Source: a virus
Lineage: Duplodnaviria; Heunggongvirae; Uroviricota; Caudoviricetes
Strand: one strand, 5' to 3'
Length of the DNA: 20,791 nucleotides
IMG/VR virus record: IMGVR_UViG_2563366825_000026
Location: 1 to 20,791 of that record
Shown: piece after piece, positions 581 through 9,211 of the stretch
Numbering within the stretch: the stretch's first letter is position 1
Layout of the letters: each line of letters opens with the position of its first letter
Position numbers and translations under genes: made by a program
The notes under the pieces: generated by a model
The model's database searches: none
Seen by the model: the letters and a program-made list of their open reading frames with translations, nothing else
What the model was told of the DNA's origin: nothing

Positions 581-613
581 AAAACCCCGCTTGCAGCCAA
601 CAAACGGGGTTTT
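581..613. terminator. bidirectional intrinsic-terminator-like hairpin between endolysin and the small membrane genes
   Basis: 9-bp perfect stem AAAACCCCG (581-589) / CGGGGTTTT (605-613), 15-nt loop, U-rich tract following on both strands. Confidence 0.5.
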
Positions 614-703
614 TACTTTTATTCACTTAGTTTTTGTCAGTTCGCAGGATTTCGTGTTATCCGCCCGTGTGAGCAAACCGCATTTTTCAGCAAAATATTC
701 TGC

Positions 704-1237
704 TTATCTGTCAATTCCCCAGCACGCCAGCGCACTCTCCTGGTCGCGACGGGATACCTGACCGTAACAGTTGTTTGAGCGAATACGGCAGTCTCTGCCA
801 CCGTCCTTAATCCACCAGCGAATCGCTTCGCATGCTCCCCTGCGATCACCTGCATTAATTCGTCTGTAAAACGTCGACGGGAAACACTTACCGGGACCAA
901 TGTTGTACGGACAGAATGACGCGATCCCCGCTTTCTGGGGTTCGGTCAGCGGCACTCTGATATTTTTCTCCACCCACGCCAGCGCTTTATCACGCTCAAT
1001 GGCGTTAACCTGGTCGCATTTTTCCTTCGACAACTTCATGCCCGGAACGACAGGTTTGCCATCCACCATGATGGCACCACGGCAGATGGTCCAGATACCT
1101 GCACCATCACGGTATGCCGTGGTGTGGTTACCTTCCTTTTCATCCAGAAACTGGTCGAGAATTTCAGGCGCAGAAGCCCCTGCGGCAATCAGCGCCAGAA
1201 CGGCAGCCGACAGGCCGTATTTGATTTTTGCGTTCAT
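704..1237 (-). CDS. R: phage endolysin, lysozyme with N-terminal SAR (signal-anchor-release) segment, P21 R-like
   Basis: 177 aa. N-terminal YGLSAAVLALIAAGASA hydrophobic stretch, then lysozyme-like body (TAYRDGAGIWTICRG, CPYNIGPGKCFPSTFYRRINAGD, ACWGI) resembling the phage 21 endolysin as I recall it. Sits in a lysis cassette with a pinholin. No Shine-Dalgarno seen upstream of the ATG. Confidence 0.85.
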   Translation of the reverse strand: MNAKIKYGLSAAVLALIAAGASAPEILDQFLDEKEGNHTTAYRDGAGIWTICRGAIMVDGKPVVPGMKLSKEKCDQVNAIERDKALAWVEKNIRVPLTEPQKAGIASFCPYNIGPGKCFPSTFYRRINAGDRRGACEAIRWWIKDGGRDCRIRSNNCYGQVSRRDQESALACWGIDR

Positions 1238-1348
1238 GGATATTTATCAGGATTTATCGGTTCCGAATCCCTGGATATGTTAAGCCTTCACCCCGCCAGT
1301 GGTGGGCACTGGCCAGGGTATGTCAATCTGATAAACACAGAGGTGACT

Positions 1349-1609
1349 ATGGATTATCCAAATCTACCAAAACAAACTTTTGCTGATTTAATCGCACTCA
1401 GGCAAGCAGTCGTAGCTCTAATCAACGTGTTGCCGGATGAGGAAAAGGAATTAGTTAAAGCAATTCTTAACAGAACTGCCGCCGATTTTTCATCATTCCC
1501 ACTGACAGATGACCTTGCGGACCTTCCTGAATTAATTGCAGCGTCCGCCATTAAGCTTACTGAAGAGATTTACTCTCCTCAAAAGCCTTCACAAAATTCC
1601 TGCGAGTAA
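1349..1609 (+). CDS. hypothetical acidic protein (86 aa), convergent with and overlapping the 3' end of the 211-aa gene
   Basis: ATG at 1349 preceded by GAGGTG; MDYPNLPKQTFADLIALRQAVVALINVLPDEEKELV... has about twice as many acidic as basic residues. Fills an otherwise unexplained 320-bp gap upstream of the endolysin. The 53-nt antisense overlap with a confident gene keeps confidence low. Confidence 0.35.
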   Translation: MDYPNLPKQTFADLIALRQAVVALINVLPDEEKELVKAILNRTAADFSSFPLTDDLADLPELIAASAIKLTEEIYSPQKPSQNSCE

Positions 1610-2192
1610 CTTCAATGCAATAATCGTAAAACGCCGCGAACTGCTCATCGCGGCGTTTTTCTTCAGGCCGCTGAAGATGCTCTTTCAACCGTGAAGCGCA
1701 GCTTAGATGCGCCGCGCGATCAAGAATAGTTTCTTTCATTTCATCTGCTGCAAGCACCTCATTTTTTGTTGGGGTGCTTTTTTTCAATTCAGCGATATAG
1801 CACTCCAGTTTTTCAATGCGTGATTCAATATCATCGTTTTCTGACCGCAATGCCGTCGGTGGCGTCTTCAGAGAACCAGTAATTATTCCCGGTAGTTTTC
1901 CTCTGTAGGTTATCAACACATCCTGCGCCTCTAAAATTATGGGGCGCTTTTCCGGCGACTGCTCATCCCCTTCACATAAAGCGGCAGCAATATCCATGAA
2001 AAACTGCTTCGCCTGTTTTTTCGCCTCAGCCTCGTAAAATTCCAGCGTGGCACCTTCAGTACGGTCAAGACTAATCGCCACATTTGGCAACAACAGTGAC
2101 GGATACCCACCAATTTCCAGTGCCACAGTAACAGTAATCTTATCCGGGTAATTATTTATCCCTTTAACAACCAGTTTGTATTGTTTATTCAT
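1557..2192 (-). CDS. hypothetical protein (211 aa) inserted between holin and endolysin; globular N-terminal region plus charged, probably coiled-coil C-terminal half
   Basis: ATG at 2192 lies 4 nt after the holin stop, with GGGGAGAG inside the holin 3' end (translational coupling). Long clean ORF with protein-like composition. I recognise no family. Confidence 0.75.
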   Translation of the reverse strand: MNKQYKLVVKGINNYPDKITVTVALEIGGYPSLLLPNVAISLDRTEGATLEFYEAEAKKQAKQFFMDIAAALCEGDEQSPEKRPIILEAQDVLITYRGKLPGIITGSLKTPPTALRSENDDIESRIEKLECYIAELKKSTPTKNEVLAADEMKETILDRAAHLSCASRLKEHLQRPEEKRRDEQFAAFYDYCIEVTRRNFVKAFEESKSLQ

Positions 2193-2196
2193 CGCC

Positions 2197-2412
2197 TTAC
2201 TCTCCCCGCGCTGCCTTACGACGGTCCTCTCTGATTTTGAAATACAGGTTAGTCAGATATGTCAGCAGCCCAAACAGCAGACTCCCCAGCACGCCTATTG
2301 CCGCCCACTGAGACGGGGAAACCCTGTCCAGCAACTGCAGGAACCAGTAGCCCGTTCCCACCGCTGACGTGGTGTATGACACACCTGTTGTGATTTTTTC
2401 CATCTGGTACAT
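2197..2412 (-). CDS. S: pinholin / antiholin, class II holin S21-like with dual start
   Basis: [71 protein letters not shown] matches my memory of the phage 21 pinholin S21 almost residue for residue in the TM and C-terminal regions. Met1 (2412) and Met4 (2403) give the classic antiholin/holin dual start. GGGAG 9 nt upstream. Confidence 0.85.
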
Positions 2413-2487
2413 ACCCCGTCTCCCGTACTCGGAAGCTCACAACAACAAAAGGGCCACCAGCTCTTTACTGATGACCCTGACTCACCG

Positions 2488-2778
2488 TTACAGCATTGTG
2501 CCCGATTCTGGCTGTGTGTCTGTCATATCCGTCACCGGTGGCTCCGGCTGAATATCACCATTTTCCGTGGTGGCATCTTCCGCCTGTGGTTCCGGAAGCA
2601 GTTCCGGGGATGGTTCCGGCTGTGCACCAAGCAATTCATCCAGAATTGAATCCACTTCTGCATCAAGACGCGCCTCAAGGTTCTGCCGAAGTTGCTGTTT
2701 CAGTGCGCTCCGGACTTCTTCAGAGCGCAGGACTTCCTTCACTGCCTCAGCAGTGACCAGCGATTTTATTTCTGACAT
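2488..2778 (-). CDS. hypothetical acidic protein (96 aa)
   Basis: ATG at 2778; MSEIKSLVTAEAVKEVLRSEEVRSALKQQLRQNLEARLDAEVDSILDELL followed by a Pro/Glu-rich tail. Located between nanS-like gene and holin. Confidence 0.5.
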   Translation of the reverse strand: MSEIKSLVTAEAVKEVLRSEEVRSALKQQLRQNLEARLDAEVDSILDELLGAQPEPSPELLPEPQAEDATTENGDIQPEPPVTDMTDTQPESGTML

Positions 2779-2803
2779 AGGATTTTCTCGTTGAAAGGGG
2801 TTA

Positions 2804-2998
2804 TTAAGAAGGTTGTTCCGGAATGAGTGGGGCTTCTGTTTTTGCTCCGGCTGACTGACTGGCGCTGATTTTCTCTGCGGCCCTTTTATCAATCTGCCTG
2901 CGCCAGAAATCGCGCACTGCCCTGTACCCACCCGAAAGAAGATACAGCACGCATACCACCGTACAGAAGTACAGCATCACCTGATGAACAAATGTCAT
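2804..2998 (-). CDS. hypothetical small membrane protein (64 aa)
   Basis: ATG at 2998; N-terminal hydrophobic helix (VMLYFCTVVCVLYLLSGG) then a charged tail. Confidence 0.45.
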   Translation of the reverse strand: MTFVHQVMLYFCTVVCVLYLLSGGYRAVRDFWRRQIDKRAAEKISASQSAGAKTEAPLIPEQPS

Positions 2999-3101
2999 AG
3001 TTTCTTACCGTTATGGTTGACTCTGGAAGCAGTTTTCGTTTAAAAAATACCAGTGACGAAAGTGATATCATCTTTCCCTGATTCTCACCATGAATCTCAC
3101 A

Positions 3102-3137
3102 CCGCCAGGGGTTTCAGGCCAGCTGGCGGTTTTTTTT
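3102..3137 (+). terminator. intrinsic-terminator-like hairpin, plus-strand oriented (antisense to the late operon)
   Basis: 7-bp stem CCGCCAG (3102-3108) / CTGGCGG (3123-3129) followed by an 8-T run on the plus strand (3130-3137). On the minus strand no U-tract follows the stem. Confidence 0.4.
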
Positions 3138-3142
3138 GCCGG

Positions 3143-5125
3143 TTATGCTGATTCCCGGTTTTCGTTAACTTTGACTGTGACCGTATCAAGCAGTACCGGA
3201 TACGTCGCTTTTGCCCCCGTGATATCTGTCAGCGTCAGCGTATCTGCTGTAAAGCCATCATTTGTCCACATCACCAGGTCAAACGCAGACTGCTCTGCAT
3301 CATCAATCACCGGCACCACTTTTTCGCTGTTATTTCCCGCAAAGCGGAAAACAACTGTATGCCAGTTATGGTCAAATGCCCCAAATGTGCCCAGTTGCGC
3401 ATTCGACTCCCCCTTGTGGTACATCAGATTCAGATTTGATGCATCCGTCTGAAGGAAGAAGGACGCCAGCATGCTGTTTGCTGTCGCGCCTGACGCCCAC
3501 TGCGACACCGGCCAGTACAGACCAAAGACAAACTGACCGTTAACCAGTTCGACACCCTCCGGGATCTTAAACCGCACGGCAATTTCACCTCCCTTACTGA
3601 GAAGATTTTTTGCCTCCTCCACCGCAACAGTACGGAACATCTTCCAGGAGGTCAGTTTACCCGGCTGTTTTTCCAGTCGCAGCGCCTTCCTGCCACTGTC
3701 ATCCGTCACAGTGCCTTTACCACCGGACGCATTCCACTGCTGCTCTGTCCATACACCACTGCCACTGTTCGCATCATATCCGGCCACCATTCTTGTTACG
3801 GCTTCAGTATGACCGCCTGCAGAAATACCTGCACCCTGCTGTTGCGTCGGACCCGCAGAGCCAGACTGTGCATCCCCCGTGGAGGCTGGCGTGGTCGCCA
3901 GCGGTGCAGACTGCCCGCTCAGGAACGGCAGCAAACGCCCGGCTCGCACCAGTATCTCTCCTGCCAGCCGATCTGAAACAATGCCTCTTCGCGCCCAGGA
4001 GCTGAAGTGCGTTTTACGAGCGGCTGTCGTCCAGTTACCATTACTGCGTGACGCGGCACCATAGTATCCCGCCGTGATAATGTCCGGATCTTCTGACGGC
4101 TCGTTTGTCGGCACATTCGCACCATGCTCATCCGTCATCAACGGCACAAAGTGAATATTCTGCGCCGCCTTGCCTTTATAGCCTCCGTAAACCGCCTCAT
4201 ACTGCACTGCATACTTCGCCTTCCAGTCGTACGTGGTGTCACCGCAAATCCACGGGACGCCGGACGTTGTCCCGCCAATACACTGGTCTGCAATATCTGC
4301 CAGGTCTGCACGGTATTTATTTACCATGGCAAGAAAAAGTGCATTGTGCTCTGCATGTCTCCCCGAACTGACATCTTTTTCCCCCTGCATCCAGATCACC
4401 GACAACAGCACGTTTTTCGGATTTTTCTTCAGGGCTGCACGCGTTCTGCTGACCAGGTCACGATACAACGGTTTATCCACCCCCCACAGGGAAGAGCCCG
4501 CTGTCGCACCCGACGCCTCATTAAACGCGCCCTCTGCTCCCGCAGTAAATCCCGAATCGCCACGTCCACACGGGACAAGAAGGATCCCCGCACGGGCAGG
4601 CATAAACGGCAGCAGTTTTTTGGCCACATGCAGGGCATGCCCCACACAGCCATACTGCCCTTTATTGAGGTCTGCTTTCGGGTGATTCAGATTACTCACG
4701 TCCTGCACATCATGCAGACAATGGTCTGCAGGAATAATGTCGTTATATGCACAGGCCGCACCGCCCGGTGTCACCGTGCTGCGACGCGCCAGTTGCTTAA
4801 TACGCGGGTCAGGACGATCATACGTATCCGGCAGCGGCAGCCCCTCGCCAAAAGACATCGAGTTGGACTGCCCGGCCAGCGCAATGACAAAGTAATATTC
4901 CGGTTCGCTGGTGGTGCTGATAACAGCGCCACCATCACCCGACGGTTGCACCACCACCGGTGTGGTGACATCACCTTCCGCCGCAATGGCCTGCATCAGG
5001 GTATAGGGCGTGATGGCGACAGGGCTGCCAAATGGCTGCCACCCCTCCTTCAGTTTTTGAGTCAGTCGCTCCGCAAGGTCTGACGGCGACGCCGCCCTGA
5101 CCACGTCATAGTGTTTAAATGTCAT
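3143..5125 (-). CDS. nanS: prophage-encoded sialate O-acetylesterase, NanS-p-like (N-terminal DUF1737-like region + SASA/SGNH esterase domain + C-terminal domain)
   Basis: 660 aa; ATG at 5125 with GGGAGG upstream. The FVIALAGQSNSMSFGEG block is the esterase-type GQSN motif. Size and architecture match the NanS-p proteins found just upstream of the lysis genes in Stx-type lambdoid prophages. Confidence 0.8.
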   Translation of the reverse strand: MTFKHYDVVRAASPSDLAERLTQKLKEGWQPFGSPVAITPYTLMQAIAAEGDVTTPVVVQPSGDGGAVISTTSEPEYYFVIALAGQSNSMSFGEGLPLPDTYDRPDPRIKQLARRSTVTPGGAACAYNDIIPADHCLHDVQDVSNLNHPKADLNKGQYGCVGHALHVAKKLLPFMPARAGILLVPCGRGDSGFTAGAEGAFNEASGATAGSSLWGVDKPLYRDLVSRTRAALKKNPKNVLLSVIWMQGEKDVSSGRHAEHNALFLAMVNKYRADLADIADQCIGGTTSGVPWICGDTTYDWKAKYAVQYEAVYGGYKGKAAQNIHFVPLMTDEHGANVPTNEPSEDPDIITAGYYGAASRSNGNWTTAARKTHFSSWARRGIVSDRLAGEILVRAGRLLPFLSGQSAPLATTPASTGDAQSGSAGPTQQQGAGISAGGHTEAVTRMVAGYDANSGSGVWTEQQWNASGGKGTVTDDSGRKALRLEKQPGKLTSWKMFRTVAVEEAKNLLSKGGEIAVRFKIPEGVELVNGQFVFGLYWPVSQWASGATANSMLASFFLQTDASNLNLMYHKGESNAQLGTFGAFDHNWHTVVFRFAGNNSEKVVPVIDDAEQSAFDLVMWTNDGFTADTLTLTDITGAKATYPVLLDTVTVKVNENRESA

Positions 5126-5348: not shown

Positions 5349-5696
5349 GTCCATAAGAAAGCCCCTCCGGAGAGGGGCTGGAGAGTGGCGCTATGTGCCA
5401 TTGCATGGTGCCGGGTGCCTCCCGGTGAGTTCAGTATCAGCACCTGAACCCGCACAGAAAGGATAAGGGTCGGTGACAAAACACCAGTTGCTGATTGCCC
5501 CTCCGCACAGGGGGATTCACCATGCCAGTTTCTTTTAACAAACTCCCCGCAAACCAGACAACAGTCAACCGCCTGAATTGTGAGGTATTTAAAAATTTCA
5601 ACGGGTAACTGATACCCTGCTAATCGCCTGATGCTTTCTTTTTCAGCAACGGGGAAGCAACAACCACCACACCCACCAGCCGCCCATTTACCACAA

Positions 5697-7514: not shown

Positions 7515-8330
7515 TCAATGAACGGTATCGAGCAGCTTTAACAGCTCAGGGAATCGGGATTCGAAGAAATGCGGCTGCGTCTCGCGCGGATTTGCAGGAC
7601 TGGTGATGTTCTTGCCGAACATGCAGCCTTTCGCTGTCAGCGACCAGAATTTTTTGATGTTGTTAATCGCGGTACGGCTGTATCGTTCGCGTTGTTCAAC
7701 GATCCCCAGCTTCGCCATCTGGTGATATGCCTGATTAGCCGTCAGGCGGATACCATACTGCTTCAGCAGTGCACTCAGCGACAGCGTAGGGCGGCTTGAA
7801 CCATCTGGCGCATCAGCAGGTGCATCAATGGCATAGATCGGCATAAGTTCAGGAAGACCAGCTACCTTTGATAATTTCTGGTATGCACCAAGTTTCGAGG
7901 AGTTTGACAGATTTAGAGTCTTTGCTGCTGATTCAAGCAGAATGACCCCGGATTTAATTTTGTCGGATGTGGTTTCTTCTGGTGATGAATTATGAAGCGC
8001 ATCAAAAGTACGTATCACTTTTAAGCTGAATGCCGGGCTGATCCACATTGCATATGCATAGACCAGCTCTTTACAGACATACGTCCCACCATTGCGCCCC
8101 TGAATGGTGATGACAGGAATACTACGGGAATCTCCCGTAGTTTCTTCTTCCAATAATTCCACAAGAGCCTTCGTTTCAGGACGACGCATAAACTCGTGAA
8201 CTTCCAGCGAACGGGAGGAGCGATTCTCACCAGCGGCAAGAAGAGCAGCTTTCTGAAGGTCGTTAAGACAGTAGTTAGATTCGAAGTACTGGCGCACAGA
8301 AACGCCATCAATTACAAGCAACTGATTCAT
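7515..8330 (-). CDS. KilA-N domain protein (antirepressor / Roi-like or BstA-like)
   Basis: ATG at 8330 with GGAGA 6 nt upstream. The N-terminal block VCKELVYAYAMWISPAFSLKVIRTFD is KilA-N/APSES-like; the C-terminal half is unassigned. It is the only gene in this operon with a long (about 150 bp) upstream intergenic region. Confidence 0.7.
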   Translation of the reverse strand: MNQLLVIDGVSVRQYFESNYCLNDLQKAALLAAGENRSSRSLEVHEFMRRPETKALVELLEEETTGDSRSIPVITIQGRNGGTYVCKELVYAYAMWISPAFSLKVIRTFDALHNSSPEETTSDKIKSGVILLESAAKTLNLSNSSKLGAYQKLSKVAGLPELMPIYAIDAPADAPDGSSRPTLSLSALLKQYGIRLTANQAYHQMAKLGIVEQRERYSRTAINNIKKFWSLTAKGCMFGKNITSPANPRETQPHFFESRFPELLKLLDTVH

Positions 8331-8393
8331 TGGTTTCTCCACAAATTTTTATCCACGAGCGGGACTGCACTCCCTTTTCGTTGATGCAGGATG

Positions 8394-8445
8394 AACTTAC
8401 TGCGATTTTTAATAGTTATCAAGGATACACTGTTCATAAATACAG
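8394..8445 (-). promoter_or_regulatory. promoter of the KilA-N gene with a LexA (SOS) box
   Basis: CTGT-N8-ACAG at 8430-8445 (cACTGTtcataaatACAGta), a near-consensus LexA box with AT-rich spacer. On the minus strand, candidate sigma70 elements are TTGATA (8422-8417) - 17 nt - TAAGTT (8399-8394), or alternatively TGAACA inside the box - 16 nt - TATTAA (8414-8409). Confidence 0.55.
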
Positions 8446-8492
8446 TATCTTTAACGAGGTAATACCCAAATTTAGGGTGTTGCTCAATTCCG

Positions 8493-8888
8493 TTACCGAG
8501 TTGCTAATTTGCAACTCGCTTTTTCGTACTTACTGATAGTGATCTCGACCTTCCCTTCCGGGATAACCGGTCCCCACTCCACCAGCATTCTTTTCACCTG
8601 GCTGTCGTCTTCCCACACACCCGCGTGGGTCAGGGCGTCAAACAGCGCCTTGTTATAGTTGTCCAGATCGCGGATCCGGTTATCCGGAGGAAACAACACG
8701 ATCTCCACTGAAGCAGGTGCCGACGTTGGTTTCGGCAGACGACGTAACTGCTCAACTATTGCTGCACACGCCGCGCTCTGGAATTTTCGCCCCGCCGCGC
8801 TTATCAGGCTCTTACCAGCAAACGCCCCTTTATTGGGGTGTCGCCAGTACGTGTTCACGCTGGGCGGAAAAGGCAGTATTAGCTTCAT
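8493..8888 (-). CDS. rusA: Holliday junction resolvase RusA (crossover junction endodeoxyribonuclease)
   Basis: 131 aa; LPFPPSVNTYWRH...DLDNYNKALFDALTHAGVWEDDSQV matches RusA family motifs as remembered from E. coli RusA (catalytic DLDN region). Start overlaps the upstream gene's stop (ATGA). Confidence 0.85.
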   Translation of the reverse strand: MKLILPFPPSVNTYWRHPNKGAFAGKSLISAAGRKFQSAACAAIVEQLRRLPKPTSAPASVEIVLFPPDNRIRDLDNYNKALFDALTHAGVWEDDSQVKRMLVEWGPVIPEGKVEITISKYEKASCKLATR

Positions 8889-9211
8889 ACTTTCAGGCCC
8901 CTCTCATGTAACCAGTGGGCTGCACGCAGCCTGGCGTTTGCCTCACCGGCAAGCAGGGCGCGGATAATCCCGACCGCCTCGCTGTCGTCGTCCTTCACCG
9001 CGGTATGAAGAGTGATACCCCGGGCCACGCCACGCTTTATCGTGATGACACCTTTTTTCTCCAGTGCGCGAAGATGCTCCACCGCTGCATTCACCGAACG
9101 GTATCCCAGCATGGTTGCCACCTCCTGATTGGTTGGCGGGAAGCCACGTTCTTTCTGATAAGAAATCAGCATATCCAGCACCTGCTGCTGGCATTGAGTT
9201 AATGTCGTCAT
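8885..9211 (-). CDS. LexA-like winged-helix DNA-binding protein (LexA N-terminal domain only, no S24 peptidase domain)
   Basis: 108 aa; LTQCQQQVLDMLISYQKERGFPPTNQEVATMLGYRSVNAAVEHLRALEKKGVI resembles the N-terminal domain of LexA (LTARQQEVFDLI...[34 protein letters not shown]). Translationally coupled to the genes on both sides. Confidence 0.7.
   Translation of the reverse strand: MTTLTQCQQQVLDMLISYQKERGFPPTNQEVATMLGYRSVNAAVEHLRALEKKGVITIKRGVARGITLHTAVKDDDSEAVGIIRALLAGEANARLRAAHWLHERGLKV

Follow-up and report, generated by a model that had tools for sequence, protein, structure and literature searches.

The closest described relative of the gene considered here is ydfR (b1555, product P76160) of the Qin cryptic prophage of Escherichia coli K-12. 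A bacterial two-hybrid screen in which RNase G served as the bait yielded its product, which binds RNase E 1-597, residues 1-72 being sufficient; RNase E 1-598, and RNA as well, co-purified with it (PMC13232886, RNA Biol 2026). The same paper describes an AlphaFold model of P76160 and cites an envelope-integrity screen in which the K-12 ydfR mutant scored. In the literature on DUF1327, ydfR and essQ/rrrQ, no functional study beyond this one was found. Here, we report on a longer homologue encoded in a 20,791-nucleotide (nt) stretch of DNA of a virus of the class Caudoviricetes (IMG/VR record IMGVR_UViG_2563366825_000026, positions 1 to 20,791), which was analyzed as a whole and is called the window. 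The open reading frame (ORF) in question codes for 211 amino acids (aa), starts with ATG and occupies positions 1557-2192 of the minus strand, between the genes of an S21-family pinholin and a signal-anchor-release (SAR)-type endolysin.

The two loci have much in common. In Qin, essQ (holin) is followed after a 4-nt gap by ydfR and then by rrrQ (lysozyme), and the window shows the same GGAGAG-TAA-NNNN-ATG junction. The N-terminal domains (N-domains) of both proteins are 43% identical, albeit over aa 1-74 only. In contrast, K-12 YdfR is 103 aa long, its last 30 residues are unrelated and its stop codon overlaps the lysozyme start, whereas the N-domain of the window protein continues into a 135-aa linker and helical extension, after which a convergent 86-aa ORF and a 77-bp segment precede the endolysin gene R (the pre-R segment).

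It is nearly certain that the window gene belongs to the YdfR/DUF1327 family of lambdoid late genes, in full length and with a long tail, and that it occupies the usual E. coli site of the family, after an S21-type holin and before an endolysin. The best explanation overall combines this identity with the role of a modulator of host RNase E, and we give it a probability of roughly 40%.

Family Identity and Position of the Gene

A first-pass annotation of this DNA, made from the sequence alone, had recognised no family for the 211-aa protein. Residues 1-112 match Pfam DUF1327 (PF07041) with an E-value of 1.4e-41 and 141 bits against a cutoff of 25, so the protein does belong to a family, the YdfR family protein of NCBI. 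PF07041 was found on all homologues retrieved in a word-index search (201/201); those with a name from their source are listed as YdfR family, DUF1327 domain-containing or hypothetical protein. The family-invariant Y5, Y53, E54 and A57 as well as the 'EGxxLEFYEAEA' start of a helix are all present in the alignments. The 90%-identity cluster of the 211-aa form, which is 97% identical to the window protein, comprises 644 member sequences. Proteins as close as this (97%) bear the NCBI name 'YdfR family protein', and the matching PHROGs 2091, 1085 and 406 are all listed as function-unknown. Identical DNA occurs in one RefSeq E. coli chromosome and in IMG/VR contigs, and phage PhiR5_1 (PV340545) carries a 97.6%-identical copy, annotated over the full 211 aa as 'DUF1327 containing protein'.

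In the 87 related loci, a holin gene was located 3-4 nt upstream wherever the upstream sequence was visible (85/85), and a lysozyme gene followed in every locus whose contig reached that far (84/87). Taken together, the 141-bit match, the 201 homologues and the conserved junction indicate that the ORF did not arise by chance, and the view that a real gene separates the pinholin and SAR-type endolysin genes was upheld. The 4-nt gap and the Shine-Dalgarno sequence inside the holin gene, both proposed previously, were correct in their coordinates: the holin stop codon TAA (2199-2197) is followed by the spacer GGCG (2196-2193) and the ATG of the ydfR-family gene (2192-2190), which is served by GGAG at 2205-2202, within the final codons of the holin gene. 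The set-up for production together with the lysis proteins, also part of the first-pass annotation, is therefore in place; the translational coupling to the holin itself is what we infer from it.

The N-domain DNA was detected at 5530 places in 2539 of the 5426 complete E. coli genomes (~47%, K-12 included), and this holin allele at 8935 places in 2450 complete E. coli genomes. These numbers, along with the essQ-ydfR-rrrQ order in K-12, contradict the notion that S and R are normally adjacent in this type of cassette. Among the 50,697 phage records, 101 encode the family; the carriers include many Stx1a- and Stx2c-converting phages (with the 116-aa form), phage 86, YYZ-2008 and mEp460. The holin/ydfR-family/endolysin arrangement is ordinary and the gene is already catalogued, not novel: its homologues turned out to be routine neighbours in lysis cassettes, but not characterised ones. 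The first-pass interpretation was thus borne out in part. A survey of gene neighbourhoods placed the related loci between holin and lysozyme genes wherever the flanks were visible; more distant members, described below, reside at other sites too.

Protein Architecture and the RNase E Hypothesis

The segments of the 211-aa protein are listed in Table 1. For the N-domain, the AlphaFold2 (AF2) model based on a 30-sequence alignment gave a confident beta-beta-beta-alpha fold (predicted local distance difference test, pLDDT, 88; predicted template modelling score, pTM, 0.76), with strands 5-14, 18-27 and 37-43 and a helix at 50-74. The full-length model was poor (pLDDT 54) and consisted of a disordered stretch 74-120 and three helices predicted with low confidence (122-138, 143-173 and 177-210). 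The globular N-terminal part and the charged, helical C-terminal half foreseen in the first reading of the sequence agree with the N-domain model, these helices and the a/d heptad pattern. When 1.84 billion representatives were searched exhaustively with the profile, only 102 relatives were retrieved. The more distant of these are stand-alone proteins of 72-76 aa, and hence the N-domain of 72-76 aa is the evolutionary unit.

No transmembrane segment or signal peptide was found in the 211-aa protein, the maximum 19-residue Kyte-Doolittle hydropathy being 1.18. Since it is also acidic (isoelectric point, pI, 5.5), the protein should be cytoplasmic. It thus lacks the transmembrane or SAR segment expected of holins, antiholins or membrane lysis regulators.

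Comparisons with known structures and systems were not informative. The full-length AF2 model was rejected as a fold-search query on account of its low pLDDT. The Foldseek comparison that had been suggested earlier gave no match in BFVD at E <= 1e-3, no significant analogue emerged from the fold searches, and a family-profile sequence search of the PDB chains returned coiled-coil noise only (E >= 0.3). The NCBIfam scan of the 211-aa and 86-aa proteins produced no matches. In PADLOC-DB 2.0, the best match of the 211-aa protein was Cmr5 at the noise level (E 0.018), and the 86-aa ORF and the other convergent partners described below had none.

Family membership, architecture, position, mobility and solubility are shown by the present analysis. 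By analogy with K-12, the 43%-identical N-domain of the window protein may bind RNase E, with altered mRNA decay as the consequence. We propose that a soluble cytoplasmic accessory protein would be produced by Q-dependent transcription of the late operon and translation off the 3' end of the holin gene. Its 76-residue beta-beta-beta-alpha N-domain would serve as a host-factor-binding module and, by homology with K-12 YdfR, would dock on the catalytic N-terminal half of RNase E (and RNase G), and the helical heptad C-terminal half would either oligomerise the protein or recruit a partner. The outcome would be changed RNA decay late in infection, with no part played in the holin-endolysin machinery. 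Taken on its own, this mechanism, in which a cytoplasmic protein expressed late would modulate host RNase E and RNA decay, is a tentative proposal to which we give distinctly less than an even chance.

A number of observations weigh against this reading. The link to RNase E comes from one paper, concerns a 43%-identical homologue and consists of two-hybrid and co-purification data only; overexpression of K-12 YdfR altered few transcripts and did not affect growth (PMC13232886). The N-domain is acidic (pI 5.0), which makes direct RNA binding by it unlikely. The perfect holin junction in E. coli and the occurrence of the helical C-terminal module (C-module) beside three kinds of lysis cassettes keep a role in lysis alive. 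Four RefSeq genomes annotated by PGAP present only aa 1-112 or 1-114, as 'YdfR family protein, pseudo, missing C-terminus', and truncated variants of 148-194 aa are numerous. Finally, selection is weak, with pN/pS ratios of 0.4-0.9 for the N-domain and of 1.9 for insert D.

Possible Lysis Control and the Distant DUF1327 Loci

Of the alternatives, a cytoplasmic regulator of lysis timing has to be weighed first. The protein, above all its acidic helical C-terminal half, would bind the pinholin at its basic cytoplasmic tail, or would otherwise tune pinholin triggering or the release of the SAR endolysin, similarly to T4 RIII, a cytoplasmic antiholin cofactor. The invariable 3-4 nt junction speaks in favor of such a role, so that both proteins are made in step, as do the lone C-modules found beside S21-type and holin_8/holin_3_7/GH108 cassettes and the several distant DUF1327 genes situated just upstream of holins. 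The score of the K-12 ydfR mutant in the envelope-integrity screen (cited in PMC13232886) points in the same direction; however, polarity on the lysozyme gene rrrQ could account for this phenotype.

The distant loci argue otherwise. Stand-alone DUF1327 genes, still above the Pfam threshold, are found on the late strand at several sites: between the Q antiterminator gene and the holin (L090-L092, L094), after tail gene I or between I and J (L088, L089, L093, L097, L098), between tail genes L and K (L100-L102) and before tail gene L, in the M-L gap (L095, L096). In approximately half of these distant contexts, the site lies among tail genes and the vicinity contains no lysis gene. The holins in the neighbourhood of the distant genes belong to three unrelated classes, including the lambda-S-type and three-transmembrane (3TM) ones, and the endolysins are either GH19 enzymes or lysozymes; hence, no consistent link to one type of lysis genes was seen across the DUF1327 family. 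Because of the tail-gene sites and the three holin classes, a function of the N-domain specific for pinholin/SAR systems is unlikely. The regulator would, moreover, have no membrane segment, and its C-terminal part is hyper-variable, often truncated and missing from the K-12 protein and the 116-aa forms of the Stx phages. On balance, we regard control of lysis timing as unlikely, and clearly more so than RNase E modulation.

In the stand-alone DUF1327 genes that end with 'KEAA' (L097 3223-3238, L100 3221-3240), the final codons and the stop codon lie in a GC-rich hairpin. This hairpin, GCGGCC-TGAT/TAAT-GGCCGC, is placed exactly between both convergent genes of the pair.

Convergent Partner Genes

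Another feature recurs across the DUF1327 family. A convergent ORF of 70-186 aa is present 3' of the DUF1327 gene in 11 of the 14 distinct contexts, at a distance of a few to ~50 nt or overlapping it (L088-L094 and L097-L104; e.g., L097 3001-3231 with 3245-3457, and L100 3001-3231 with 3273-3821). The possibility that the partners represent one diverged family was rejected, since at least seven unrelated groups were distinguished in the all-against-all BLASTP comparison; their PHROGs are all function-unknown, or there is no match. Partner family C occurs at two kinds of sites, after tail gene I and upstream of holins, and partner family D both at the tail I-J site and in the S-R cassette. The recurrence of the same pairs at different sites indicates that the DUF1327 gene and its partner move as a unit, and DUF1327 genes usually travel with a convergent, variable partner gene. 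In L094, the minus-strand partner (4488-5042) of a 145-aa DUF1327 protein codes for 184 aa with 'IRNQFAH' (an Rx4H motif) and has faint HEPN matches (E ~0.08), which makes this gene a candidate for HEPN RNase-like cargo.

In the window, the partner of the ydfR-family gene is the 86-aa ORF (Table 1), which is preceded by a GAGGTG Shine-Dalgarno sequence. It lies in a sharply bounded mosaic cassette (1314-1616) between module E and the pre-R segment. The cassette is present wherever the gene has the 183-aa or 211-aa form, and every locus whose form ends with KSLQ retains an intact 86-aa ORF (38/38). Of its 20 variable sites, 11 fall in the third codon position. Homologues were confined to 18 protein clusters, 17 from E. 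coli and one partial match from Salmonella enterica; the ORF is in essence an ORFan of E. coli. Two plus-strand hairpins follow it within the ydfR-family coding sequence, the first 19 nt past its stop codon, inside module E, and the second 143 nt past it, at the start of insert D. The first hairpin looks like a terminator of a plus-strand transcript. A promoter scan upstream of the ORF detected no sigma-70-like promoter, and by eye only a weak TTATCG-16-TATGTT was noticed. In comparison with type I-like convergent toxin-antitoxin pairs, the two ORFs overlap by 53 nt, at the 3' end of the ydfR-family gene, and the partner is an acidic and soluble protein, not a membrane peptide.

These findings raise the alternative that the late-strand DUF1327 gene is one half of a mobile two-gene cassette and acts with the convergent small gene, here the 86-aa ORF. 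The partner could be, for example, a conversion, exclusion or toxin-like cargo gene expressed in the lysogen, which is countered or regulated once the DUF1327 protein and late transcription appear. The frequency of convergent ORFs, the recurrence of the same pairs (partner families C and D), the discrete mosaic nature of the window partner with its own Shine-Dalgarno sequence and two hairpins, and the HEPN-like features in L094 are consistent with it. On the other hand, it is difficult to see how one conserved domain would specifically recognise at least seven unrelated partner families, and PADLOC matches none of them. For the 86-aa ORF, the promoter scan turned up nothing convincing, and its selection is only mildly codon-like. 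Partners are also absent from K-12 YdfR, the 296-330 aa forms and L095/L096. The two-gene explanation is, in our opinion, about as improbable as that of lysis control.

A more far-reaching version, somewhat less probable again, assumes that the DUF1327 genes are the conserved half of an undescribed mobile cassette of lambdoid late operons, which hops between the Q-S, S-R, I-J and L-K gaps and whose other half is the convergent cargo gene, quickly exchanged and drawn from the seven or more unrelated families. The DUF1327 protein would control or neutralise the lysogen-expressed cargo during late development, possibly via RNase E. If this were true, it would serve as a device of self-immunity or antisense management where prophages carry conversion or defence genes, with the 211-aa and 86-aa pair as one instance. 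Neither the recurrent convergent-partner cassette nor the fusion-fission link between DUF1327 and the C-module, described below, was encountered in the searchable literature.

The C-Terminal Half of the Protein

The RefSeq pipeline does not recognise the C-terminal half as protein: on identical or related DNA, the records that carry the pseudogene call annotate the opposite-strand ORF instead. The four affected loci (L001 6005-6346, L004 1378-1713, L006 1558-1893 and L007 1378-1719) contain intact ORFs of 183-268 aa. When set against the full 211 aa given in PV340545, this looks like a systematic annotation conflict, in which the RefSeq pseudogene calls hide full-length YdfR-family proteins.

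The family members differ strongly in their C-termini. Some end after the N-domain (K-12, 103 aa) or after linker B (116 aa), and the 183-aa forms have nine residues in place of insert D with the frame kept in the 20-member alignment. Longer members of 263-333 aa run on into two alternative extra C-terminal domains. The coil, module E and tail also occur without DUF1327 (P0168 and P0181), and in P0146 they follow a different N-domain, beside a holin_8/holin_3_7/GH108 cassette. In L104 (48-1443), the C-module forms a separate gene: an S21 holin gene is followed after a 3-nt gap by a gene for 209 aa, after a further 27-nt gap by a stand-alone DUF1327 gene for 75 aa (924-1151), and finally by a convergent gene for 95 aa (1156-1443). 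The 209-aa protein comprises the coiled-coil/EKKRRDEQ-AAFYD module and a long C-terminal domain. What is a single fused protein in the window is thus split in L104 between two adjacent genes in reverse order, a fusion/fission pair. The distant 145-aa member P0219 has its own coiled-coil tail, unrelated to that of the window protein.

In the alignments, forms with diverged DNA still share the helix pattern of the tail, and the ORF is intact at every 183-aa and 211-aa locus. The pN/pS ratio was ~0.4 in N2 and coil C and 0.1 in module E, the latter with very few changes; for the tail and the antisense ORF, the codon-position and pN/pS tests were underpowered and showed weak constraint only, giving weak support either way. 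Since the C-module recurs in other architectures and even has a gene of its own, and the helix pattern is retained, we conclude that the 211-aa product is real. The helical C-terminal half is an independent module tied to DUF1327 by gene fusion or fission; insert D may represent hardly anything beyond a DNA module that keeps the frame.

The remaining alternative, the least likely of all, that only the N-domain matters and the 211-aa ORF is a recombinational chimera or a decaying gene, translated through DNA modules to the first stop into a functionless C-terminal half, could draw on the pseudogene calls in the four genomes, the pN/pS ratio and the terminator hairpin at the start of insert D, module E being itself a hairpin, the many different C-terminal ends in mosaic DNA and the common 103-aa and 116-aa forms without the tail, but it is countered by the C-module being conserved at the protein level elsewhere, both within different architectures and as a gene of its own, the tail helix pattern retained despite diverged DNA, the frame preserved across the replacement of D, the 644-member cluster with ORFs intact in all 183-aa and 211-aa loci, and the distant member that independently has a coiled-coil tail.

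Other Features of the Lysis Cassette

The coordinates of the genes and elements are collected in Table 1. The 71-aa holin has the Met1/Met4 dual start typical of pinholins. The endolysin N-terminus, GLSAAVLALIAAGASAP, is Gly/Ala-rich and SAR-like and its catalytic residues show the E-x8-D-x5-T spacing, both as judged by reading the sequence. The pre-R segment is common to nearly all cassette variants, whatever precedes it. The Rfam scan of the region 600-3200 gave sub-threshold noise only, and thus the 320-nt gap before R does not correspond to a known RNA.

Table 1. Positions of genes, protein segments and other elements of the lysis region in the window.
Feature	Position	Strand	Basis
SAR-type endolysin, T4-lysozyme family, 177 aa	704-1237	-	PF00959, E 3.3e-24
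Pre-R segment, 77 bp, directly upstream of the endolysin start	1237-1313		blastn breakpoints, query 880-956
Convergent 86-aa ORF, acidic, pI 4.3	1349-1609	+	phrog_2572, 86/86 positions, E 3.6e-50; RefSeq WP_001625288.1
Amphipathic tail, aa 197-211	1604-1560	-	alignment
Module E 'PEEKRRDEQFAAFYDYC', aa 176-196	1667-1605	-	alignment, DNA mosaic breakpoints
Terminator-like hairpin, 12-bp GC-rich stem and U-rich tract	1628-1659	+	-20.1 kcal/mol, z -2.9
Optional insert D, aa 139-175	1778-1668	-	alignment, DNA mosaic breakpoints
Second terminator-like hairpin, 10-bp stem followed by UUUUUUUCAAUU	1752-1791	+	1752-1779 + U7 tract, z -3.9
Heptad coil C, aa 115-138	1850-1779	-	a/d positions I122, I126, L129, I133, L136
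Linker B, aa 77-114	1964-1851	-	alignment, DNA mosaic breakpoints
N-domain (DUF1327 core), aa 1-76	2192-1965	-	alignment of 20 members
S21-family pinholin, 71 aa	2197-2412	-	PF04971, E 9e-33; phrog holin families; sequence read
DUF826 gene, upstream of holin	ORF 2488-2931, start probably 2778	-	
DUF1378 gene, upstream of holin	2804-2998	-	

Upstream of the holin, positions 3143-5125 of the minus strand code for a 660-aa DUF1737-like/SASA-family carbohydrate esterase of the NanS-p type known from Stx phages. With the esterase, DUF1378 and DUF826 genes, the region from Q to S has the composition that is usual in Stx-like lambdoid prophages. The matching RefSeq prophage has no annotated stx gene, and tRNA genes were not detected in the window. 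A terminator-like hairpin (2450-2478, minus, i.e., late strand) with a 12-bp stem and a T-rich tail is located between the DUF826 gene and the holin gene. In the identical prophage L001, a DNA methyltransferase gene and two tiny ORFs (7984-8919) lie between the endolysin gene and an Rz-like spanin gene. This place falls just past the low-coordinate end of the window and is another moron site in the same lysis cassette.

Comparison with Known Systems

YdfR-family genes occur in ~47% of the complete E. coli genomes, many Shiga-toxin phages carry them as well, and their products are made with the lysis proteins. The recognition of a 72-76 aa unit that is not tied to lysis genes, of an independent C-module and of a convergent variable partner makes the function of the family more tractable. 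Together with the binding of RNase E by K-12 YdfR, these results give concrete and cheap experiments.

The lambda bor gene beside Rz is a lambdoid moron, an opposite-strand gene next to the late genes. The 86-aa ORF resembles it in being inserted on the opposite strand of the late operon and has a Shine-Dalgarno sequence of its own, terminator-like hairpins and sharp mosaic breakpoints. However, it is unrelated to bor in sequence, no promoter was found for it and, which is unusual, it travels with a conserved sense-strand gene.

Cytoplasmic or accessory regulators of lysis are represented by the antiholin cofactor RIII of T4, LydB of P1 and the endolysin-regulation genes of phage Mu. The window protein is likewise a small accessory protein of a lysis cassette, co-expressed with the holin, and is soluble and helical like RIII, but it has no homology to these regulators and the YdfR family also occurs far from lysis genes.

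Phage proteins that target RNase E include Srd of T4, gp0.7 of T7 and Dip of phiKZ (PDB 5ft0). If the K-12 result transfers to the window protein, it would resemble T4 Srd as a phage-encoded binder of the N-terminal catalytic half of RNase E, a likeness of YdfR to Srd for which the source is PMC13232886. It differs from Srd, gp0.7 and Dip in showing no sequence similarity to them and in being encoded by a late gene in the lysis cassette of a temperate phage, whereas theirs are early genes of virulent phages.

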